Shown here piece after piece: positions 5,098 through 64,000 of a stretch of DNA of 64,000 nt. Below the pieces are notes generated by a model that had not been told where the DNA came from, ran no database searches, and saw nothing but the letters and a program-made list of their open reading frames with translations. The stretch is from a virus. The stretch is taken from IMG/VR virus record IMGVR_UViG_3300025117_000032. One strand, given 5' to 3'. Positions within the stretch are counted from its first letter, which is position 1. Each line of letters begins with the position of its first letter. A program made the position numbers and the translations under genes.

Positions 5098-5166
5098 TTA
5101 CTTTTTCTTCCGATCAGCATATCTCCGTATGCGGGTTAATCGTTATTTATTGGTTACTTTTCCAAC

Positions 5167-6054
5167 CTATATTTGCACAACCAAGTCAGTCTTTTTTGGT
5201 ATTGGATATCTTAGACCATCGTGTTTGTATGTGGTGGGTCCAGATTTAACAAGGACTATATCGTCACCTTCATCTGGGTATCTAAACTTATCCCCAACCT
5301 TCAACTTTGAAAATGGAACTGTATCATTTTTCTCAACACCCTCTTTGACTGTTTCAGCAAGGTTCTTACCCCTTCGCATACGGTAAGCAACCCGTTCTTT
5401 GACTGTCCTATAGCTCTTATCCAAGGCCACAACACTTATGTAGGGTTTCCCATCTTCCTCATTCAACTCACTGGAAACATGCACCCCAACATAGAAACCA
5501 GCATCCTCGTATACAAGGTAAGCACCTTTTAACAACTTCTTACCCTTCTTGAAATTTCCATCTCTTTCAAGTTTGATGTTGTTCTTAAGATCCTTGGACA
5601 ATCTTGGATCTGTATAATGCAATTGGGTTATCCTCTTCAATGAGGGATAATGCGCCTTGAATGATTCGTTTACATCTATTCTTTTCATGCTGCTTACCTT
5701 TCTTTCGGTCAATAGTTTACCATAGAACTCTCTTTTTTCTCTTACGCTGGGCTTCCTCAAGCTTGCCCGCATATACTTTCGATACCCTTTACCAACTGCA
5801 TACCAAGCTGTTTTCTTGACAATGTTGTAAAACTCTTCGCCATCCACACCTGGAAACGTCCTTATTAACGTCCTTAGTCTTTTTATGTACCATTTTGATA
5901 AATAGTTGGTATTTATCCCCTCTATGTATCTTTCTCCATCATCATAGAACACCAGGAGCAATGGTGATTTATCGTTTTTCCACCCACCAACCTGTCCAGG
6001 TCTTTGTTTCTTGCCATAAACAAACGACAATATTGATCCGAATTTGTAGCTCAT
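5167..6054 (-). CDS. putative T4 gp2-like DNA end-protector domain protein with C-terminal extension
   Basis: F.YG...D..PLLLVF...EGINTNYL...YRKY pattern; paralog of 6051..6644. Confidence 0.45.
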   Translation of the reverse strand: MSYKFGSILSFVYGKKQRPGQVGGWKNDKSPLLLVFYDDGERYIEGINTNYLSKWYIKRLRTLIRTFPGVDGEEFYNIVKKTAWYAVGKGYRKYMRASLRKPSVREKREFYGKLLTERKVSSMKRIDVNESFKAHYPSLKRITQLHYTDPRLSKDLKNNIKLERDGNFKKGKKLLKGAYLVYEDAGFYVGVHVSSELNEEDGKPYISVVALDKSYRTVKERVAYRMRRGKNLAETVKEGVEKNDTVPFSKLKVGDKFRYPDEGDDIVLVKSGPTTYKHDGLRYPIPKKTDLVVQI

Positions 6055-6644
6055 GTTTCTTTTTTATCCTGTATCTTCTCAACTAAGTTTTGGTTTTCTA
6101 CGTTATAGTATATGTATGTAAATATATTTCGAAAGCTCGAACGAACATACTTTCTGTATCCCTTGGTTATCGCAAACCTAGCTGTCCTCCTAAGGATATG
6201 GTAGAACTCTTCCCCATCAATACCAGGAAACCGTTTCATGATTAGCTTTAACTTGTGAACATAAAACCCAGACAAGTAATTCATATTGATACCCTCAATA
6301 CGATCCTTTGGCATATCATCCCAGAACACCAATAGGTTTGGTTTCCGGTCCACCTTCCAACCACCGATCTGTCCTTGAACTTGCTTGTTTCCATATACAA
6401 ATTCAAGGACTGTTCCATACGGAATTTTTTTCACAATAGAGTATGACTTCCTAATCATACCTGGGGGGATTGGTCTTCTATATTTGATTGGAGCAAGCTC
6501 TGGTTTCTTGGCAAACTTACCCCTAACATCCCTGGCAACCTCTCCAGTGATGACAACCTTCTTGGTAAACTTACCCTTGACATCCCTAAATGAATGTTTG
6601 GCACGCTTTGGCTTGAATGCCTTATGTGGTTTTTTGGCTTTCAT
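6051..6644 (-). CDS. putative gp2-like protein with basic N-terminus
   Basis: FVYG...GGWK.D..PNLLVF...EGINMNYL...KGYRKY; RDVKGKF/RDVRGKF repeats. Confidence 0.45.
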   Translation of the reverse strand: MKAKKPHKAFKPKRAKHSFRDVKGKFTKKVVITGEVARDVRGKFAKKPELAPIKYRRPIPPGMIRKSYSIVKKIPYGTVLEFVYGNKQVQGQIGGWKVDRKPNLLVFWDDMPKDRIEGINMNYLSGFYVHKLKLIMKRFPGIDGEEFYHILRRTARFAITKGYRKYVRSSFRNIFTYIYYNVENQNLVEKIQDKKET

Positions 6645-6825
6645 TGAACCTCTTCACAATCTCATCCATGTATGCTTGTTGCATTTTTTCAGCAAACTCA
6701 TGGATTTTGTTCTTCCTATGGTTCAAGCTTTCTGCTCTTAGCTGGTGATTTTCTTTCTTCAATCGGTTCCTCTTTTGAGCTTTCTTTTGCTTGATCGCCA
6801 TTGAGTGTTTGTTCGGCTTTTTCAT
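6622..6825 (-). CDS. small basic hypothetical protein
   Basis: ORF with GGAGG RBS, overlapping neighbours. Confidence 0.5.
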   Translation of the reverse strand: MKKPNKHSMAIKQKKAQKRNRLKKENHQLRAESLNHRKNKIHEFAEKMQQAYMDEIVKRFNESQKTT

Positions 6826-7096
6826 TGTATACCTCCAACAACTTGTTAAAAACTTCCATGAACATCTCTGAAAAATTTATGTTGCCTAGATCCTCTAGCA
6901 CATACACACTAGGAATACTTATCTTCCGTTTGGTGTAGACTTCCCTCTTTACCTTGTCTGGTCTTTTTGCTGGCAAGGGTTCCCCTGGAAAATCTATGAC
7001 CTCATTCCCAGCATGAATGGTTGTGTACTTATCCGTATCAGACTCTAGTTCCTTTAGTTTAAGATGTTGGCTTCCTCCTAAAAATAGTACCTTCAT
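6716..7096 (-). CDS. hypothetical protein
   Basis: ORF coupled to upstream gene (ATGA overlap). Confidence 0.55.
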   Translation of the reverse strand: MKVLFLGGSQHLKLKELESDTDKYTTIHAGNEVIDFPGEPLPAKRPDKVKREVYTKRKISIPSVYVLEDLGNINFSEMFMEVFNKLLEVYNEKAEQTLNGDQAKESSKEEPIEERKSPAKSRKLEP

Positions 7097-7459: not shown

Positions 7460-10400
7460 TTATACCTCACATGATCCTGTTTTGCACTCTTCATTAACAA
7501 CCTTAACCAAATCTTTGTTCTTAGCATACAACTCAACATTCTCTTCTGTTGTTGGTATGGCAACCAATGGTTCATTAGCTCTTGACCCAGCACGATACAA
7601 TGTCAACCCCTTCAAGCTATCGCTGTAATTCAATATCAACTCCATCAAATTATGGTAGTCATAGTCCTCTGGGAGATTTATGGTGTTGTGCGAAACTATC
7701 CCATCTATTAGGTATGAATGAGTATCTTCAACTGAAATATCCCACACCTGTTTAACTCCAACACATTCTATTGACACCACCTTTACACAAGTAACATTGG
7801 AATCATAACCACTATACCCAAGATTTTTCAAGGATTCTTCAACCATAAAACCACCACACAAATTCATGGACCTCTTAAAATTTCTTCTCTTATACGATTC
7901 AGTGGTTCCAACCCCAATTAATTCAACCAATTTTTCTCTATCTTCTTCCTTAACAAACCTCTGAATCCATTTTCTACCTCCACTTGGTAACTTGTGGCTT
8001 TCAATTGGAATTAAATCACAACCATCGTTATAATATATGGAAATTCCATAAGACTTATTTGATTTCAACCCGGTCTTAACTTTCTTTTCCCCAAAATAAT
8101 ATTGGTATCCCAACCCGGCACAAATAGAAATGCATTTCTCAGCTATGTCTTTTGAATACCCCTCATAAATCACAAGCTTTCCGGTGTCATTAATTTTGTA
8201 TCCATCTAAGGTTAAGCCCCTCAAAAAATGTTTCTTCACAAGATTATTTGAACACATAATTTCACCTGGGACCACCTTGTCTACACAATTAGAACCAAAT
8301 TTATCTCTGAAGTGTTTAACCATTACTCTTGAATTTATGTGGTGCGACTTAACACCAGATCTTTTGTCAACCGAAGTTTTCGGTTCTACCCCAAAACACT
8401 TAACAAAAAGGTTGTCAATCAATTCACCAACAATATGATTTTTTTCAACTATACCAACAGAGTTTTTATTTGTATATCCATCTGCTAACCACATACCAAG
8501 AAATAAGGCAAAATCTTCGTCCATATGCGTTGGGTAATCTTTTACCCAATTGTTTGGTCTATCAATTTTTTTGTATTCAAACAAATTATCGTTCAACATT
8601 GGCGTTGTATTATAAAACACCCTATCTCCAATATCTAAACTTGTTACCCCCTCCCATCCGTTTGGTGTTTTAAATTTGTGGTTAAGAGAACATTTTATTT
8701 CTCTTCCGTTAGAAAACTTAATAGAATAGCATTTTTTTCTTCCTCCATTATATACACTTACAACTTTTTTCATACAGCCATTTTCATCCAAAACCATAAT
8801 CCCATCATGTGGAGTGGTAAATGTATCTTTTGGAATGTTCTTTGTTTTTGCTATATCTTCTATTTTTATAGTGCCGAAATTTGTATTAATTAGCGTTCCT
8901 TCGATGACACATTTGCTTATTGCCTGATCAACATAATCCTGAATGGCTGCTTGAACCGCAATGTGTTCCTCTGGGGTTACATCATAAGCCCCAACGATAT
9001 GCTCCCATTTGTTTCCGCTATTAACAGCCCTTGCGAACATTGGGTCAACCACAATCTCTTCTGCTATGACATTATCAACTCTATACTTTCTCCTATACAT
9101 AGGTGAGAAGATTGGTTCAATCCCGCTAGACGTTCCGGCGATCATGGATATTGTCCCGGTTGGAGCTATGGAAAGAATAACAGCATTCCTTATCCCGTAC
9201 TTCTGTATGCTCTTCAAAATTCTAGTTGGTAGCTTCTTCACAAAGTTATTGTCTATGTATTTCTCATAGTTAAACTCTGGAAAAGACCCCTTGGTTTTTG
9301 CTGTATCTATACTTGCCTTGAATGCTTCGTTGCGTATGGTTGTGAACAACCTCTCTATGAACTCCAAAGACTCTTCCGATCCATATCTATACCCAAGCTT
9401 GATTAGCAAATGGTGAAGACCCATGACACCTAGACCTATTCTCCTAGACCTCTCTGCTACGATCTTTGTCTCTGGAGTTGGATAAACGTTCATGGTTAGT
9501 ACATTGTCCAACATCCTCACGGCAATCCCGATCACCTTTTCCAACAAAGACCAATTCACATCATCCGTGACTTCATCATACATCAACCCAAGGTTGATGC
9601 TTCCCAAGTTGCAGTTTCCATCATCGGGAAGCAAGGCTTCTGTACAATTTCTTGTTAACACCATACTATATTTGTTGTTTCCATTTTTATCAACTGTTGG
9701 ATTACCAATGCAGAAAAAATTATGGTGTTTTAGTACATTCCCGCAATATACATCTTCAACACCTATTTTTTCAACAGACACAACCCTATGGTTGTTTAAA
9801 CCATTTAAGTCTATATGATGAACACACTCATCTGGTCCAATTTTAACACCAGTTCTCAATTCTACTTGGATATTGTGCTCTGTTCTTCTATTACCACTAT
9901 GGGAAATCCAATTATAATATTGGGATTTTGGTTTATTCCAAAGTTTCTGTTTCCACATTGTCATTGAATGTATTGAATCGTTATTTTTCAATTGTATACA
10001 AGTTTTCTCTGATCCATCTTTCATTATGAATTTGTGTTTGTCATTTACATCTAAGTATGTTCCATCGGAAAATGAAACTCTATAGATGTCATTCATTTTT
10101 CCAGTTTTCCGTATGTTTTCCATTTTTGATATTGATAGACTTCCATTGTTGTCAACACAATATACGTCAGTATCCTCACCAATTTCTGATAATTCTGAAA
10201 TCTTAATTGGATCTCTCCCATCTGCAACGGCAACCAATGTATCCCCAACTACACATGGATTGCAACTGCTATACTCTTCAAAATACTTGGTTGCAAAATT
10301 GTTCTTTATGTTATCGACAAACAGGAACCCAGGTTCACCGGACTCAACTGCATTCTTGCAAATGGTATCCCACAACTCTTTGGCTTTGATGTTTGTCAGA

Positions 10401-11182
10401 CCAACCACTTCAAAGGTATCTTCCCAATGAAGTCTAAAGAAATTTTCTGCTGTCTTCAAAGCAGTTTCTTCGGATGTGGCAACCACATAAATTTCGTCCT
10501 CAATACCCTTAGATGTTCTCTTTAGCAGATACCTATTGAACACCTGCCCCCTAAATTCAAACACCCAATCCTTGTCTGCTTTCACAGCCTCAAAAAACTT
10601 ATTGAAGTAATTCACACTAATATTGTGGTTGTTCAACTCATGCAAAGTCAACTTTACATTCAAAAACTCTTGAACATCGGGGTGTGGTATATCCAGGTTG
10701 GCTATTAGAGCCACCCTCCTGCCCCCACCCGACTTTATCTCATTACCAATGGCATCTATCTTCCTTATCTCTGAAACGACTCCTGGGGCAACCCCTTGGA
10801 CACCCTGGATAGGATCCCCCTTTGGTCTTATGTTGCTGTAGTTTGTTCCAACTCCCCCACCAAATGTAGAAATTAGATACATATCGTGCATAAGCTTGGC
10901 AATAGAGTGCCGGTTGTCCTCAACATCCTTGCAAAAGCAATTCAACAAACCACCAAGTCTTCTGCCCGACCCATACAGAACCCTTCCACCTGGAAAATAA
11001 TAACCATTTGACAAAACCCAATTAAACCTCTTTTCCCATATAACCATATCTCCATTGTGTTCTGCTTTTGATAAATGATTCGCTACCCTTCTTGCTACCT
11101 CTTCCCATGTTTTTTCTGTTGGCAATGCGTATCTTTGTGCCATTATGCTCCGTTGAAAATCACTCATCTCAAATTTATCCAT
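7460..11182 (-). CDS. nrdJ: class II (adenosylcobalamin) ribonucleotide reductase with two inteins
   Basis: PGGR, NCF, GGGVG, GEPG, NP|CTE, CNLGSINL, RRIGLGVMG, SIAPTGTIS, ISK|TINLP, KGLTLYR, C-terminal CKTGSC; no nrdB in window. Confidence 0.9.
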   Translation of the reverse strand: MDKFEMSDFQRSIMAQRYALPTEKTWEEVARRVANHLSKAEHNGDMVIWEKRFNWVLSNGYYFPGGRVLYGSGRRLGGLLNCFCKDVEDNRHSIAKLMHDMYLISTFGGGVGTNYSNIRPKGDPIQGVQGVAPGVVSEIRKIDAIGNEIKSGGGRRVALIANLDIPHPDVQEFLNVKLTLHELNNHNISVNYFNKFFEAVKADKDWVFEFRGQVFNRYLLKRTSKGIEDEIYVVATSEETALKTAENFFRLHWEDTFEVVGLTNIKAKELWDTICKNAVESGEPGFLFVDNIKNNFATKYFEEYSSCNPCVVGDTLVAVADGRDPIKISELSEIGEDTDVYCVDNNGSLSISKMENIRKTGKMNDIYRVSFSDGTYLDVNDKHKFIMKDGSEKTCIQLKNNDSIHSMTMWKQKLWNKPKSQYYNWISHSGNRRTEHNIQVELRTGVKIGPDECVHHIDLNGLNNHRVVSVEKIGVEDVYCGNVLKHHNFFCIGNPTVDKNGNNKYSMVLTRNCTEALLPDDGNCNLGSINLGLMYDEVTDDVNWSLLEKVIGIAVRMLDNVLTMNVYPTPETKIVAERSRRIGLGVMGLHHLLIKLGYRYGSEESLEFIERLFTTIRNEAFKASIDTAKTKGSFPEFNYEKYIDNNFVKKLPTRILKSIQKYGIRNAVILSIAPTGTISMIAGTSSGIEPIFSPMYRRKYRVDNVIAEEIVVDPMFARAVNSGNKWEHIVGAYDVTPEEHIAVQAAIQDYVDQAISKCVIEGTLINTNFGTIKIEDIAKTKNIPKDTFTTPHDGIMVLDENGCMKKVVSVYNGGRKKCYSIKFSNGREIKCSLNHKFKTPNGWEGVTSLDIGDRVFYNTTPMLNDNLFEYKKIDRPNNWVKDYPTHMDEDFALFLGMWLADGYTNKNSVGIVEKNHIVGELIDNLFVKCFGVEPKTSVDKRSGVKSHHINSRVMVKHFRDKFGSNCVDKVVPGEIMCSNNLVKKHFLRGLTLDGYKINDTGKLVIYEGYSKDIAEKCISICAGLGYQYYFGEKKVKTGLKSNKSYGISIYYNDGCDLIPIESHKLPSGGRKWIQRFVKEEDREKLVELIGVGTTESYKRRNFKRSMNLCGGFMVEESLKNLGYSGYDSNVTCVKVVSIECVGVKQVWDISVEDTHSYLIDGIVSHNTINLPEDYDYHNLMELILNYSDSLKGLTLYRAGSRANEPLVAIPTTEENVELYAKNKDLVKVVNEECKTGSCEV
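7685..8911 (-). mobile_element. intein 2 of RNR (409 aa, LAGLIDADG)
   Basis: CVIEGTLI...NHKF...LGMWLADG...FLRGLTLDG...VWDISV...SHN|T. Confidence 0.93.
9647..10255 (-). mobile_element. intein 1 of RNR (203 aa, degenerate HNH remnant)
   Basis: CVVGDTLV...HKF...VHHIDLNGLNN...VYCGNV..HHNF...TRN followed by catalytic Cys of NPCxE. Confidence 0.88.
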
Positions 11183-28363: not shown

Positions 28364-29185
28364 ATGCAACATAAATGTTGGGTTTGCGAAAGCACATTTG
28401 AAAAATACGATTCACTTCGTAGGCATGTTGGTAGGGCGCACAAAATACATTCGTCCGAAGTGTATGTTAAAGTAAACCTTGATGGGGTCTATCCAATTTG
28501 CGCTTGTGGTTGTGGTGAAAAATTGCCATGGACAAACAAGGGCTTTCTCAAATATATTCGCGGCCATGCATCTAGGGTGAACAACAATTGGGGTCACAAT
28601 CCAAAGGCAGTTCAAAACTCAACTGATACCAGAAGGGAACAATATAAAAGTGGCCTTAGAACGGTTTGGAATAAAGGTTTAACCAAAGAAGATCCTAGGG
28701 TTTTAAAATACATTGTTGGAATGAACACAGAAGAAAGATCTAAGAAGATATCAGAAACAACAAAGGGAAAAAAGAAAACTGGAAAAGCTTTAATTGCTTC
28801 CAGAAACAATATACTAAACTTCCACAAAAGCAATCCAAAATATAGCGGGCTTGAAAATAAATTTGAGTTTATATTAGATAAGCTTGGTGTAAAGTATGAA
28901 AAGCAGAAACAATTGGTTTATGGAACTTTTGGGGTTAGAATTTATGATTTTTGTATTCCATCTAAGAATATTTTGATAGAAGTTGATGGTGATTATTGGC
29001 ATTGCAATCCGTCTATTTTCCAAGATGGACCAATAAATAAAACCCAAACAGAAAATATAATAAACGATGCGTTGAAAGAAAAGTTGGCAAAGATAAGGGG
29101 ATATACATTAATCAGGTTTTGGGAACAAGATATAGTAGACACACCAAATGCTATTTTTGATGATTTGTATGAGAAAATAAAGTGA
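28364..29185 (+). CDS. DUF559/Vsr-like putative homing endonuclease with Zn finger
   Basis: C2H2 N-term, CACGCG, WNKGLTK, YDF...LIEVDGDYWHCNP...GY.LIRFWE. Confidence 0.8.
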   Translation: MQHKCWVCESTFEKYDSLRRHVGRAHKIHSSEVYVKVNLDGVYPICACGCGEKLPWTNKGFLKYIRGHASRVNNNWGHNPKAVQNSTDTRREQYKSGLRTVWNKGLTKEDPRVLKYIVGMNTEERSKKISETTKGKKKTGKALIASRNNILNFHKSNPKYSGLENKFEFILDKLGVKYEKQKQLVYGTFGVRIYDFCIPSKNILIEVDGDYWHCNPSIFQDGPINKTQTENIINDALKEKLAKIRGYTLIRFWEQDIVDTPNAIFDDLYEKIK

Positions 29186-29625
29186 TGACTTACAAAAGAA
29201 AACGGAACCCTCATGCTTATGGTGTGAGGGTTTTGCTTAGGAAACGTCCTCAAAATAGCCTAGAAAAACGGTTTGAAAAGATCCTCATTGAATTGGGGGT
29301 TGACTACAAAAAGCAAGCCGTTGTTTGGGTGAGTTTAATCAGGGGTCACAAAAAATACAAAGTGTACGACTTCCAAATACCATCCAAAAAGATCCTCATT
29401 GAAATAGATGGAGACTATTGGCATTGTAACCCCAAAAAATATCCAAACGGCCCCATAAACAGAGTCCAAAAAAGAAACATTCTGAATGATTCCATAAAAG
29501 ACAGAGTTGCTATTGCGTATGGTTATCAATTAATCAGGATATGGGAAGACGATATCAATAACAACACAAAAAATGTAACCAAAAGCCTAAAGAAAGTTAT
29601 TGGCAAAATAAATCTACCCACTTGA
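29182..29625 (+). CDS. DUF559/Vsr-like endonuclease
   Basis: LEKRF, YDF...LIEIDGDYWHCNP...GYQLIRIWE. Confidence 0.8.
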   Translation: MMTYKRKRNPHAYGVRVLLRKRPQNSLEKRFEKILIELGVDYKKQAVVWVSLIRGHKKYKVYDFQIPSKKILIEIDGDYWHCNPKKYPNGPINRVQKRNILNDSIKDRVAIAYGYQLIRIWEDDINNNTKNVTKSLKKVIGKINLPT

Positions 29626-50007: not shown

Positions 50008-53000
50008 TCATCCTTTGCGTTTTCTATCAATCAACCAAGTCAAACTTTCTCTTTCTCCCCTTGGACCAATCTGTACCCAAGGATTGGGGTTTGCCCTAGA
50101 ATTCATGAACCCCCTATTTGTAGGAAGAGAATTCTCTGCTAGATTACTTTCCCCTTGCATAGCTTTCAAGGCAGCAACCACAGCTTCCCTTCCACTTGAT
50201 CTGTCTTTAAGGTGAGTAGACTTAACAAACAATCCAATCCCCCCAGCTATACACAAGTCATCATTATACCCTGGCATAGCTTGAGGCTTTCCATTTATCC
50301 AAACCAAAGTCCTAAGCTCTGAAATTGTCCTGGTAGATCTTATCTTAAAGCTCCCAACTCTAATACCCTCTTCCAATGCAGAAATAATAAGTGGCCTAGA
50401 AGTATTCGTTGTCTGAAACCCAGGTATAGCAGAGACATCATGTTTGGTTGGGTGATCATTCATCTTTTTCATTTTCTCTTTGCTGTACATTCCCTTTTGT
50501 GAATAGAATAAGTTCTTATAATCAAGGTCAACTAGCTTAAGACAAGTTGCATATCCAATGCTATTAGCTTCAGGAACAATCAAAGCATTGTTATAGAGAG
50601 TTCCAACATCATACAACAACCCAGCATATTCATCTGGAGGAAGTCTATGCCTGTACTCTGCAACTTGCTCATCACTAGAATTGATAACATGAAAAGCAGA
50701 GTAATCAGAAGAATCTCCCCTAGCTACGTCCGCACATATTAAATACTCTTCGCCTTCAATGGGGTCTTCCCATACCCAAAGATTCTTATAGAACATACTG
50801 AAAGGAACATCTTCCTTTTTATGGTACTGCAACACTTCAAAGCCTTCATATAGAGGTTTTCTACATTCTTTCTCTGCTTCAAGTATATACTTGTTCTCAA
50901 TAACCATATCCCCAGAACCAAGAAAGTCCATATCCAACTCTTGAGCGATAAGCCTGTCAGAAGCTAACTGTCTCTTTTGGTTTTCATACCAAGATGAGGT
51001 AGGATGAAAACTAGATTCAGCACAAATCTCACAAAGCACTTCACCATTGAACATAGATCCTGTCAATTGTCTATTACCACAACTGGCACAAATCCACTCC
51101 AAGTTTTCAGAGTATAATGGATGTTCCGTCCAATGAATGGTTATCGGATTAAAGTCAGATTCTTTGTTGACCGCAAGCGTCCATTGCTTGTGATACCAAT
51201 TTCCGACTCCCTTGGGGGTTTGGTGTCCAAGTATTGAGTTATATATTACCGAGTGATCCCAAAATGATATCATGTTGATATCACTTTCTGAAATTTCAGA
51301 AGAAATTTTGTGTGAGTTTTTGGTGCTAGGCAATGAAAAATCAACTGTAGGGTTTGAGCTAACTGTAATGCTACGAATAGGTTCCCACTTGACGTTTGGT
51401 GAGAGTATCTTATCTAGTTCAATTGTTAGTTTGTTAGGAATGGTTGTGTTTTGTAGGCAAATATTTTTTAGCTTCAATAGGTTTTGGCGTGAGGTATGGT
51501 GGGTTTTGTACAAACTTTTTTTATTTAGTACCCCATTAATATTCAAACCCCACTTCTTAATCAGCGTCCACGTTCCAAAAGGTAATAAGTCAAACAAACA
51601 CTTGCAGTAATAAACTCCGTTGGGTATTACATCATGTGAGCTTGACTTTACAATATTACTTTTTGTGAAGCTCTCACTTGGGTTTTTTGAGCTAAGTGTT
51701 TGTGTAATATTACTTTGGTTAGCTGCCCGGCATTTTTTTTCTAATTGATTCTCATTTTCAACCTCAAAATTTTCTGGCACGTTTCTTGCTATAGCAAGTT
51801 CTGTGCCAAAACCGGGCTGCACAGAATTTTGTTTGGCACGATTCTTGCTAGACCCACACTCAAATTGGTTTTGACTAGCATTTTCATCTGTAAGCAATTT
51901 GTCGGGCAGCCCATAGTTGGCACGATTCTTGCTAAAGGTTTGATTTATAATGCTCTCTTTTTGTGAAATTGTGAACCCAGTTGTTAATTTTTTATCATAC
52001 AAAACGTCAAAACAATTCATTTTACCCCTTATGGGTTTTTGATTATTTTGATCTATAGTGTGTTTTTCCCCGGAAATTTCAGTTTTGGTTGTTAAAAGTT
52101 TAACAAGATTTTGGGAAGCAATTTTCGTTCCAAGTTTTTGGTTGTCTGCGTCCCTGCATGTTAAAGTTTTAACATCTCCTGATTCTAAATCATCAAAATT
52201 TTCGTCCCTAGCAAGAAGCGTGCCAGGCAAAATTGGCAATAGGTGGAGTTTACCGATACCTTCAAGTTCTGTGCCTGTTAATTTTTTAACATGCGGAGCA
52301 GCAGCCAACAAAACATTATGATTCTCAAATTCGCCATCACAGTTTTTGATATTTGGTTTTATTGTATGATTTTTAACTGCAAAATTTCTGGTATGATTCT
52401 TGCTAGGGGAATTTTGTTCGATTTGGTTGGCACAGAACTTGCTATAGCAAGAATCATGCCAAGTCTGGGATGTAATTATTTGATTCTCATTTTCAATTGG
52501 TGAGCGCATCGCTTGACTTTGTAGCAAAATGCCGGGCAACTCACAAAGCATAGGAAGGACGTTTTGATTATCCTGTTTTTCCTGGGAGTTGAACCCAATC
52601 AATTCATAGAACAATTTCGATTCTGATTGATTGAGAGTTAACCTGTACTGGATGGTATCGTATTGAAAGTAGCTGTTCCTTCCATTGACTGCCCCGTACT
52701 CACTCAAGATTCCAATGTTGTCTAGGATGATTCTTATTTGATCTATTAGAACCTTTGAGGAAAGTCCTATGGACACAATCCCTCTGTCTGCTCTGGAGAA
52801 TCCTTTGCAATCAAAAATTCCGTTCACCAAGGCCCCTAGATTGCCCCCAGACAACTCCAATAGTCTTGGAGGTATGGAGCGTTGGGTGTTCTTTGTGTCT
52901 GGTTTAAAGCCCAGGTAAAGAAGGAATTCAATGAAGTTCTTTGAAGTGGTAAAAATATTGTCAGTATGGGTTTGGATGTCTACATTTTCAAGAGTAAATC

Positions 53001-54111
53001 TATCCTTCATATCCTGGGTTATAGAAACAAAACTTACATATCCCCCTATGAGTTCATTTGCCTGTTGAGAATTTATTATGCTCATTGATCCATTGGCAAT
53101 GTACACACCCAGGAGATAGGCAAGGTCTGGTGTAATCACTGTTGGAAGAAAGTTATCATGCAGGGTTGTGTTTGTGCTAAGGTCTGGTGTTAGACGAAAA
53201 TCGGTTAGTGTATCGTTATTTCCCCAGACATTCATCCCATACTGTACTGCAACGAAATCATTAACTTCTAAATCTCTCAATTGAAACCAATCGTATCTTC
53301 CAACTTTATTTGAGAAAGCCCATAGCTTATGATTCAATGAACCCTCTAGCTTTGCACTCCTAGTAGATATAATTTTAGTTTTACACACTCCATTGTTGTA
53401 AGCTATGCTGCCAGTTCTTAGTTTATCCTTGCCTAACACACCATAAGAAGCAACTGTTTGTTCACCAAGTAAGTCCAGGTTTGCATAGTCACCAATTTGC
53501 TTTATACCCCTATCCGTGTAAATGTAAGTGTCAGGTGTAACGCAAGAGATAACAATACCAGCACCACCCATTGACAATGTAGGGTAAGCTGCTGCCCACA
53601 AGTCCTCAACCTTATTCGTAGGAATGGCTGCTGCCTCATCAATAACCAATAGGGTCAATGATTCAGACCTAGCTGCATCATCTGTGGTGGCGTGAGCAAT
53701 AACCCTGGAACCATTAATGAGTTCGATTGAACCCTGGTTATCCAATAAAAGTTTTGGAACCAACCAAGTGGGAGACTTTTTCAGTATCAACTTTATCTTG
53801 CGAACAAACCCAGAAGAGTTCACTTGCTTATTTGCCACAACTGCAACCTCTGTTGCCTTATGAAAAGCCACCAACCAAGCAATGTAACCTGCTGCTATTG
53901 TTGAAATACCCAACTGTCTTGATTTTAGAATGATGTTGAATCTATGCTCTTGGAATTCTCTCAAGCAATCTTTCTGGAAATCATACAACTGAAACTTAAC
54001 GTACCCACCCTTTGGGTCTCTCACCACACCATAATTGAGTAGGTAATATTCTGGACTAGCGGAACACTTGATGATCTCTTCGGTCATCTGTTGCTTGGAT
54101 AATGCAGGCAT
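50008..54111 (-). CDS. terminase large subunit (T4 gp17-like) with 775-aa intein
   Basis: LYDFQ, KSRQLGIS, LVIDEAA, VIS|TPKG, DVARG...DYS, PEANSIG, NDDL. Confidence 0.95.
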   Translation of the reverse strand: MPALSKQQMTEEIIKCSASPEYYLLNYGVVRDPKGGYVKFQLYDFQKDCLREFQEHRFNIILKSRQLGISTIAAGYIAWLVAFHKATEVAVVANKQVNSSGFVRKIKLILKKSPTWLVPKLLLDNQGSIELINGSRVIAHATTDDAARSESLTLLVIDEAAAIPTNKVEDLWAAAYPTLSMGGAGIVISCVTPDTYIYTDRGIKQIGDYANLDLLGEQTVASYGVLGKDKLRTGSIAYNNGVCKTKIISTRSAKLEGSLNHKLWAFSNKVGRYDWFQLRDLEVNDFVAVQYGMNVWGNNDTLTDFRLTPDLSTNTTLHDNFLPTVITPDLAYLLGVYIANGSMSIINSQQANELIGGYVSFVSITQDMKDRFTLENVDIQTHTDNIFTTSKNFIEFLLYLGFKPDTKNTQRSIPPRLLELSGGNLGALVNGIFDCKGFSRADRGIVSIGLSSKVLIDQIRIILDNIGILSEYGAVNGRNSYFQYDTIQYRLTLNQSESKLFYELIGFNSQEKQDNQNVLPMLCELPGILLQSQAMRSPIENENQIITSQTWHDSCYSKFCANQIEQNSPSKNHTRNFAVKNHTIKPNIKNCDGEFENHNVLLAAAPHVKKLTGTELEGIGKLHLLPILPGTLLARDENFDDLESGDVKTLTCRDADNQKLGTKIASQNLVKLLTTKTEISGEKHTIDQNNQKPIRGKMNCFDVLYDKKLTTGFTISQKESIINQTFSKNRANYGLPDKLLTDENASQNQFECGSSKNRAKQNSVQPGFGTELAIARNVPENFEVENENQLEKKCRAANQSNITQTLSSKNPSESFTKSNIVKSSSHDVIPNGVYYCKCLFDLLPFGTWTLIKKWGLNINGVLNKKSLYKTHHTSRQNLLKLKNICLQNTTIPNKLTIELDKILSPNVKWEPIRSITVSSNPTVDFSLPSTKNSHKISSEISESDINMISFWDHSVIYNSILGHQTPKGVGNWYHKQWTLAVNKESDFNPITIHWTEHPLYSENLEWICASCGNRQLTGSMFNGEVLCEICAESSFHPTSSWYENQKRQLASDRLIAQELDMDFLGSGDMVIENKYILEAEKECRKPLYEGFEVLQYHKKEDVPFSMFYKNLWVWEDPIEGEEYLICADVARGDSSDYSAFHVINSSDEQVAEYRHRLPPDEYAGLLYDVGTLYNNALIVPEANSIGYATCLKLVDLDYKNLFYSQKGMYSKEKMKKMNDHPTKHDVSAIPGFQTTNTSRPLIISALEEGIRVGSFKIRSTRTISELRTLVWINGKPQAMPGYNDDLCIAGGIGLFVKSTHLKDRSSGREAVVAALKAMQGESNLAENSLPTNRGFMNSRANPNPWVQIGPRGERESLTWLIDRKRKG
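51220..53544 (-). mobile_element. terminase intein (LAGLIDADG, Gln-terminal) carrying a ~300-aa extra insertion
   Basis: CVTPDT...NHK...LLGVYIANG...GIFDCKG...TVDFSL...GHQ|T. Confidence 0.9.
51718..52544. promoter_or_regulatory. array of sigma54 -24/-12 sites, Rex-like palindromes and Fur-like boxes inside the intein
   Basis: 9 GG-N10-GC sites (e.g. TTGGCACGATTCTTGCT x2); TGTTAA-N4-TTAACA x3; TTGATTCTCATTTTCAA x2; terminal inverted repeats. Confidence 0.8.
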
Positions 54112-62978: not shown

Positions 62979-64000
62979 TCACTTTGTTACCCCCTTAACA
63001 TTGATTAATGGACGTACCCTATGCACGATTTCCACAAGATCCTTTTGCGCCAACATCACATCGAAAATGTTCTTGTATGCGAATGGGGATTCATCAAGGG
63101 TATCGGCATTTACCTTTGCCTTGATCCCTCTCATTGCAACTTCAAAGTCAACCACGTTGGTTGATTCCTTGATAGCCTTTCTGCTGGACACCCTCCCGGC
63201 ACCGTGAGAACTTGACCACAATGATTCTGGGTTTCCTTTACCTTCAACGATAAAAGAACCATCCCTCATGTTGCCTGGAATGACACCCATCATTCCTTCC
63301 TCTGCATGAGTAGCACCCTTGCGATGAATCCACAATCCGTTCTTCAAGACGGCATGGTTGTGGTTTCTGTTGATGAAGCTTACATCATCTTGGCTTGGTA
63401 CACAGTCAACAAACTTCTTTATGGCTGCATAGACGGAACGATTGATGCATAGTCTATTGGTCAAAGCAAATTCCAAGCACCCATTCATATCGGCAATGTA
63501 TTCTTCACCAAGGGTGGAATCAGTTCTGAATCCAAAATGTCCCTCACTTGCCTTTCCACTTGGGGAAGCAAGTTTCATGTATGCTTGAGCTACCTTCCAA
63601 CCGAACCCCCTGGACCCAGAATGAATAATAATCCAACAGCTATCGTTTTCATCGTAGCCAATTTCTATGAAGTGATTCCCACCGCCAAGGGTTCCGACTT
63701 GCCTTAAGGCTTCACAATCCTTGAAGATCCCCGTTGCCAGCGGAGAAAAATCCTCTATGGTAGAATCATCCCAACCACAGGCTTGTTCTTTTTGGTGATG
63801 AGAAAACCCAACGGGGACAATCTTATAGATCTCGTTGAAGATGTTATCTGCATTAGCGATAATGTCTTCCTTGGAAGTGTCTAGCTTGGTAGCACACATC
63901 CCACACCCAATATCGTAGCCGACAAATTGCGGAGAGATCATTTCTCTTGTCGCCACAACACCCCCTATGGGTAATGAATACCCAACATGGGCATCTGGCA
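62979..64000 (-). CDS. rtcB: RtcB RNA ligase (5'-partial)
   Basis: PDAHVGY..PIGG at edge, VGYDIGCG, GTLGGGNHFIE, HSGSRG, HNH, HRKGAT, SHGAGR, DESP.AYK. Confidence 0.95.
   Translation of the reverse strand, partial: PDAHVGYSLPIGGVVATREMISPQFVGYDIGCGMCATKLDTSKEDIIANADNIFNEIYKIVPVGFSHHQKEQACGWDDSTIEDFSPLATGIFKDCEALRQVGTLGGGNHFIEIGYDENDSCWIIIHSGSRGFGWKVAQAYMKLASPSGKASEGHFGFRTDSTLGEEYIADMNGCLEFALTNRLCINRSVYAAIKKFVDCVPSQDDVSFINRNHNHAVLKNGLWIHRKGATHAEEGMMGVIPGNMRDGSFIVEGKGNPESLWSSSHGAGRVSSRKAIKESTNVVDFEVAMRGIKAKVNADTLDESPFAYKNIFDVMLAQKDLVEIVHRVRPLINVKGVTK

Follow-up and report, generated by a model that had tools for sequence, protein, structure and literature searches.

Clustered TGTTAA dyads among predicted sigma-54 boxes inside the terminase intein of a T4-like phage

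The 64,000-nt stretch of viral DNA analyzed here (IMG/VR record IMGVR_UViG_3300025117_000032; hereafter the window) covers the region of a T4-like phage genome devoted to structure and replication; the gene for the large terminase subunit (terL) of this phage is interrupted by an intein. Within this intein, four copies of a dyad with the core TGTTAA-N4-TTAACA are interleaved with nine predicted sigma-54 -24/-12 boxes, and the dyad sites are conserved as DNA, not as peptide. From their motif class, spacing and occurrence elsewhere we propose, with moderate confidence, that the dyads may be enhancer sites (upstream activator sequences, UAS) for a host sigma-54 activator, or bacterial enhancer-binding protein (bEBP), and that together with the boxes they would complete a sigma-54 module. 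An earlier sequence-only reading had attributed the same palindromes to the repressor Rex and considered that they might titrate it. The phage contig of about 152 kb is present in 13-19 assemblies, with two assemblies compared head-to-head being identical, has 39% GC and carries strong Shine-Dalgarno sites before its genes.

Dyads and sigma-54 boxes within the terminase intein

The palindromes that the sequence-only reading had placed at 52089-52106, 52158-52175 and 52275-52292, and the imperfect one at 51981-51998, were all recovered at these positions, as was a TTGTGAA half-site at 51961, next to which a second copy had been missed. The motifs and the coding features that contain them are as follows.

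50008..54111, minus strand: terL gene, 1367 aa, intein-interrupted (open reading frame list and translation)
51220..53544, minus strand: intein, residues 190-964, 775 aa (junction in the intein-less relative L002)
51649..52569, minus strand: lineage-specific in-frame insert, 921 nt, residues ~515-821, holding all motifs (intein comparison)
51982..51997, no strand assigned: dyad P1, TGTTAATTTTTTATCA, one mismatch (motif scan)
52090..52105, no strand assigned: dyad P2, TGTTAAAAGTTTAACA, perfect core (motif scan)
52159..52174, no strand assigned: dyad P3, TGTTAAAGTTTTAACA, perfect core (motif scan)
52276..52291, no strand assigned: dyad P4, TGTTAATTTTTTAACA, perfect core (motif scan)
51775..51808, both strands: predicted sigma-54 boxes S1 (+) and S2 (-), back-to-back (motif scan)
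51834..51933, plus strand: predicted sigma-54 boxes S3 (51834-51849) and S4 (51918-51933), both perfect (motif scan)
52117..52225, minus strand: predicted sigma-54 boxes S5 (52117-52132, one mismatch) and S6 (52210-52225, perfect), among P2-P4 (motif scan)
52389..52461, both strands: predicted sigma-54 boxes S7 (+, two mismatches), S8 (+, perfect) and S9 (-, one mismatch), S8 and S9 back-to-back (motif scan)
51961-51967 and 51969-51975, plus strand: tandem TTGTGAA half-sites immediately before P1 (direct read)
51933-51945 (minus strand) and 52473-52485: IHF-consensus matches (WATCAANNNNTTR), each adjoining a sigma-54 box

With up to one mismatch the dyad core occurs five times in the 64 kb, against 0.39 expected from shuffled sequences (none of 100 shuffles reached five), and four of the five matches are packed within 311 bp. 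TGTTAA is the only half-site to recur among the 29 perfect 6-N4-6 dyads of the window, and its three occurrences all fall inside the insert. Over the whole genome (151,927 unique bases), the remainder of which was reached by exact-protein look-ups, the three perfect dyads and the six perfect sigma-54 boxes are likewise confined to the insert. The possibility raised in the sequence-only reading that such palindromes are equally frequent elsewhere in the genome is not borne out; the dyads are real clustered elements that belong with the sigma-54 box array.

The predicted boxes (TGGCAC-N5-TTGCT, six of them perfect) span 51775-52461 on both strands, so that four dyads and nine boxes share 700 bp, with back-to-back box pairs at each end and the dyads clustered in the center, between boxes that face outward. 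P4 lies upstream of S7 by 98 nt, of S8 by 137 nt and of S5 by 144 nt, while P1 lies 174 nt upstream of S2, a box oriented in the terL sense direction. The spacing typical of UAS, with a box ~70-200 nt downstream of the dyad, was thus found for S7, S8, S5 and S2 and not for S1, S3, S4 and S9. Sigma-70-like promoters are not enriched (5 versus 3.3 +/- 2.0), and no terminators were found. The two IHF-consensus matches in the insert, out of nine in the window, are suggestive only.

Both TerL exteins match the PHROG terminase large subunit (E 9e-39 for the N-terminal extein), a LAGLIDADG_3 match lies inside TerL at residues 427-506, and a T4-type portal gene comes after terL. In the relative without intein, residue 189 is fused directly to residue 965. 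Four homologous inteins (L001, L003, L004 and L006) run from residues ~514-522 into ~812-841 with 0-27 nt between them, and because they lack the intervening residues we regard residues ~515-821 as a lineage-specific insert. It contains no stop codon in the terL frame versus 12-37 in the five other frames, the probability of remaining open by chance being ~2e-10. No homologue of the insert protein was found among proteins of 751-2393 aa and no DNA match to it in 50,697 phage records; the nearest IMG/VR TerL proteins are 42-44% identical and lack it. Since it is spliced out of the protein, an intein can store 921 bp of cis-acting DNA in an essential gene.

That the dyads have no function at the DNA level, and only reflect duplication inside an intein linker that is disordered and evolves fast, or a repeated V-K-x-L-T peptide, seems to us very improbable. 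The four sites do share one frame, in which all encode (V/D)-K-x-L-T, the insert is rich in internal repeats, and the assemblies (two compared directly) offer no sequence variation for a test of selection. The shared frame is, however, forced, because the two other frames place TAA in frame. The 12 core positions are 96% identical between dyad copies, versus 33-38% in the 30-nt flanks, so that recent duplication does not account for the copies. All three V-K-x-L-T peptides are spelled T-GTT-AAA-nnn-TTA-ACA, a choice with a chance of about 1e-7, and TTA, a rare leucine codon (14% of phage leucine codons), is used at all four sites. As RNA, the dyads would form only weak hairpins (-0.7 to -5.8 kcal/mol), in which the stems are invariant and the loops vary, and Rfam gave no significant match, so an RNA explanation was dropped. 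The forced frame, the contrast between core and flanks, the codon choice, the weak hairpins and the lack of an Rfam match together place the constraint on double-stranded DNA. An identical dyad accompanied by the same boxes in non-coding DNA of another phage, described below, also speaks against a peptide or duplication origin.

The same dyad at bacterial sigma-54 promoters and in an unrelated phage

The core TGTTAA-N4-TTAACA is a TGT-N10-ACA dyad and thus falls in the motif class of bEBP UAS, which activators with a Fis-type HTH read. Dyads of the form TGT-N10-12-ACA serve NifA, FhlA and 15 groups of Clostridiales enhancer-binding proteins (EBPs), including the AdhR and PrdR groups; published sites, among them the AdhR site TGTTAATTTTTATACA, have half-sites in common with the phage dyads (PMC6615313). 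Desulfovibrio EBP motifs likewise carry TGT and ACA half-sites (PMC4641369). The phage sites resemble these UAS in being 16-bp dyads with TGT...ACA ends and an AT-rich variable center, in their several copies about 100-170 nt from -24/-12 boxes, and in the identity of the dyad with one that stands beside a PAS-AAA+-Fis-HTH activator gene in metagenome-assembled genomes (MAGs) of Desulfobacterales. They differ in lying inside a translated, later spliced-out part of a gene, among nine boxes of both orientations; no regulated gene is evident, and the phage has no recognizable activator gene.

The bacterial occurrences came from a scan of one genome per bacterial species for a dyad followed, after 80 to 110 nt, by a box. 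It returned 22 loci, including eight in Desulfobacterales-order MAGs, one in an uncultured Desulfovibrio MAG, three orthologous loci in Bacteriovoracaceae and one in Aquificaceae, upstream of glnB; in four Maribacter matches the box is coding sequence. Two Desulfobacterales loci (L237 and L254) have the dyad flanked on one side by a divergently oriented PAS-Sigma54_activat-HTH_8 gene and on the other by a sigma-54 promoter, from which a TusA-like gene and an Fe-S flavoprotein oxidoreductase are driven, and in a six-genome alignment of Desulfobacterales loci conservation is limited to the dyad cluster and the promoter. The same dyad is thus found at genuine bEBP-controlled promoters in bacteria. 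In a Halobacteriovorax genome (L276, G013:C1:1917651) and a Desulfobacterales MAG (L278, G011:C107:22116), the only perfect dyad genome-wide precedes a sigma-54 promoter by ~85-100 nt. Each of five bacterial genomes with sigma-54-linked dyads carries one to three perfect dyads; all five encode sigma-54, and a Rex N-domain match was found in none of them.

A scan of IMG/VR for the same arrangement, a dyad with a sigma-54 box 80-110 nt after it, yielded L116 (IMGVR_UViG_3300001605_002971), an unrelated contig of 50% GC with a terminase of a different family (Terminase_3). A non-coding gap of 550 bp (L116:4300-4850) holds seven sigma-54 boxes on both strands, including a back-to-back pair, and two perfect dyads, with outward-facing boxes 101 and 109 nt downstream of them. 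The gene blocks on either side of this hub diverge, and terS (5107-5526) and terL (5516-6961) follow directly downstream of it.

As to the host, Bacteriovoracales or Desulfobacterales are candidates on a weak lead. A 109-kb contig in a Bacteriovoracales MAG (L272-L274, G473:C13:36000-70000) contains a syntenic T4-like structural module akin to that of the phage, with a portal 42% identical and an intein-less TerL at 31-43% identity, and neither dyads nor boxes. The phage portal was not found in 301 Desulfobacterales genomes, and look-alikes of the phage RtcB gave no usable host taxonomy.

Candidate readers of the array

Under the proposed sigma-54 activator reading, the dyads and the nine interleaved boxes would form a complete control module, written in the sole frame in which the intein, and with it TerL, can still be translated. 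Activator dimers would bind the dyads, assemble and make contact, through DNA looping, with sigma-54 RNA polymerase waiting at the boxes around them. The boxes may then fire only once the host activator is on, giving sense and antisense transcripts inside terL; alternatively, the array may hold activator and sigma-54 polymerase off host promoters as phage DNA copies multiply. We lean slightly to the latter, a sink or sponge, because the boxes point both ways without gene logic and the five bacterial genomes examined carry only one to three dyads each. A fuller version of this idea is put forward tentatively and is in our view rather doubtful. In it, a lytic phage hides an in-frame DNA decoy in its intein; the four dyads would tie up a specific host sigma-54 activator and the nine boxes sigma-54 RNA polymerase, so that one host sigma-54 response would be shut down as phage genomes accumulate. 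If true, the decoy would be a sponge for transcription factors that is encoded by a virus and consists of DNA instead of protein or RNA.

Several points weigh against host sigma-54 activator sites. A cognate host activator is presumed, and the reading of the phage boxes by sigma-54 is a prediction from sequence. No gene of the whole phage genome has a precomputed Pfam match to Rex, a bEBP or sigma-54, so the phage brings no recognizable activator of its own. S1, S3 and S4 have no upstream dyad, S5 and S6 have P2 and P3 downstream of them in an operator-like arrangement, and the dyads are spaced 69-117 bp apart, with well-studied UAS pairs standing closer together. The bacterial scan could find sigma-54 contexts only, because a box was required by design. 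The dyad is absent from 80 other phage loci with sigma-54 box pairs, the pairing of dyad and boxes being therefore rare (two phages), and TGTTAA half-sites serve many unrelated regulators.

The sequence-only reading had seen in the dyads operators of Rex, whose titration would derepress host energy metabolism genes. As a decoy model, host Rex dimers would bind the dyads, and multiplying phage DNA would titrate the repressor and so derepress fermentation and energy genes. Its Rex consensus was correctly quoted, and in its Clostridiaceae form, TTGTTAANNNNTTAACAA (PMC9600882, PMC4600107), the consensus matches P2 with its flanks (52089-52106) at 18 of 18 positions; two further sites score 16/18, and one 16/18 with a core mismatch. 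The phage sites thus share the 16-bp core of Rex operators (TTGTGAA-N4-TTCACAA; in Clostridiaceae TTGTTAA-N4-TTAACAA), the strong Shine-Dalgarno sites and 39% GC would fit a Rex-bearing host, and Rex-like 18-mers form arrays in other phages. The outer positions are nevertheless poorly conserved. The outer T/A of the 18-mer is retained at one of the four sites, and T occupies the outer position in 33% of window half-sites, 25% of those in L116 and 6% of those at Desulfobacterales sigma-54-linked sites, versus 79% of 642 half-sites (321 sites) in the Rex-like phage arrays. The 18-mer with up to two mismatches is weakly enriched across the window (8 versus 3.56).

Context also sets the window apart from Rex operators. 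The sites are intragenic, in the TerL intein, and do not lie over or just downstream of a sigma-70 promoter of a redox or fermentation gene; their linkage is to sigma-54 boxes, whereas the Rex-like phage arrays, found at sigma-A-type promoters with LexA boxes, are free of sigma-54 boxes. The five bacterial genomes with a sigma-54-linked dyad encode sigma-54 and lack a Rex domain match. An operator-like order of box then dyad was found in IMG/VR in L116 only, and in metagenomes in four matches which, because they were isolated and none had further boxes, we read as chance. One site's match to Rex is real, but the context favors another reader, and Rex decoys appear to us unlikely. The earlier reading's own caveat, that other regulators with TGTTAA half-sites might be involved, has proved the better lead.

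A dimeric reader of a different kind, namely a CRP/FNR-type host regulator, an unannotated phage protein or a small terminase at a pac/cos-like signal, is somewhat less improbable than Rex, though we would not expect it. TGTTA-N6-TAACA resembles the CRP/FNR site TGTGA-N6-TCACA, many regulators use TGTTAA half-sites, and most genes of the phage are unannotated. The module of dyad and boxes lies in or beside terminase genes in both the window and L116, and sigma-54 box pairs upstream of terS or terL also occur in L012 and L013. The terminases of the two phages are, however, unrelated (T4-type versus Terminase_3), yet the dyad is identical, which points to a host-type reader common to both. In T4-type phages, DNA is packaged by headful and no strict pac site is used, which counts against a packaging signal. 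The partner motif, moreover, is the sigma-54 consensus in six perfect copies, and bacteria pair both elements at genuine bEBP loci.

Related arrays and neighboring genes

Back-to-back pairs of the form TGGCAC-N5-TTGC-N2-10-GCAA-N5-GTGCCA were found in at least 120 IMG/VR viral contigs (L118-L197 and further ones) of 33-68% GC, often in tandem and often upstream of terS or terL, as at L012:3620-3653 and L013:440-1260. The window shares with these arrays the back-to-back TGGCAC-N5-TTGC pairs, often near terminase genes, but the other arrays are non-coding and without the dyad, which is added in the window and L116 only and is in frame in the window only. The new part is the partner dyad alongside the sigma-54 boxes. 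Sigma-54 box arrays occur in well over a hundred uncultured phages, and the present locus would supply the second half that a sigma-54 control unit had been missing, namely a dyad of activator type such as bacteria have next to real activator genes. Direct phage use of the host sigma-54 machinery becomes testable because the locus points to a class of protein, to its binding site and to candidate lineages of the host. No bEBP was found in L116, L012, L013 or L117. In L117 (L117:640-830, IMGVR_UViG_3300005573_000178), a near-complete AT-rich phage of 37.5 kb, a perfect dyad ~100 nt upstream of a perfect box adjoins two DnaA boxes (TTATCCACA); this may be a live sigma-54 promoter of a simple kind, or else a chance match. 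The box-pair loci of L154 and L175 carry different palindromes of their own.

Two known systems offer partial parallels for cis-acting sites within coding sequence. The iterons of the lambda origin lie inside gene O and are read by the protein of that same gene. They resemble the phage dyads as cis-acting dyad repeats in frame within a tolerant linker of a coding gene, but nothing suggests that the intein reads its own dyads. A report on Escherichia coli describes intragenic sigma-54 sites and a sigma-54 holoenzyme that binds promoters in a transcriptionally inactive state (PMC4591121); the sites described there likewise lie within coding sequence but are scattered and single, whereas the phage intein packs its nine boxes and four dyads into 700 bp.

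A scan of IMG/VR for pairs of dyads returned 54 loci with arrays of the same core, against fewer than one expected by chance, and these are, by their sequence features, a genuine Rex-like class that differs from the window in context and in the outer positions. The 54 viral contigs concerned (L059-L111 and L041; mostly 27-48% GC) carry arrays of a Rex-like 18-20-mer, (A/T)TTGT(T/G)AA-N4-TT(A/C)ACAA(T/A), mixing TTGTTAA and TTGTGAA half-sites, with examples at L068:190-10830, L062:170-10760 and L063:300-1000. Perfect Gram-positive LexA boxes (CGAAC-N4-GTTCG), as many as 20 in 11 kb, frequently alternate with the arrays. L068 and L062 show, in this order, a terminator, a Gram-positive LexA box, one to three dyads, a sigma-A -35/-10 promoter and a small gene. 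The arrays are bounded by a terminator and by the sigma-A -35/-10 promoter of small early genes, and the neighbors of the IMG/VR dyad arrays are mostly small unannotated genes. Five of the phage fragments with dyad arrays yielded no Rex gene. A scan for single dyads in IMG/VR gave 42 single matches, which is the chance level and uninformative. We found no papers describing sigma-54 box arrays or Rex site arrays in phages.

Elsewhere in the window, which contains no tRNAs, the gene for the ribonucleotide reductase large subunit (7460-11182, minus strand, 1240 aa) also has an intein (Intein_splicing match in the gene table of L112), so that, together with terL, the phage has at least two essential genes bearing inteins. 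Bacterial rtcB is itself controlled by the sigma-54 activator RtcR. The phage has a gene for an RtcB RNA ligase at 62979-63956 (minus strand; full length 383 aa, from L113), and no link between it and the motif array has been shown. Two neighboring open reading frames with DUF559/Vsr-like endonuclease domains (28364-29625, plus strand), probably free-standing homing-type nucleases, break up the minus-strand tail module.

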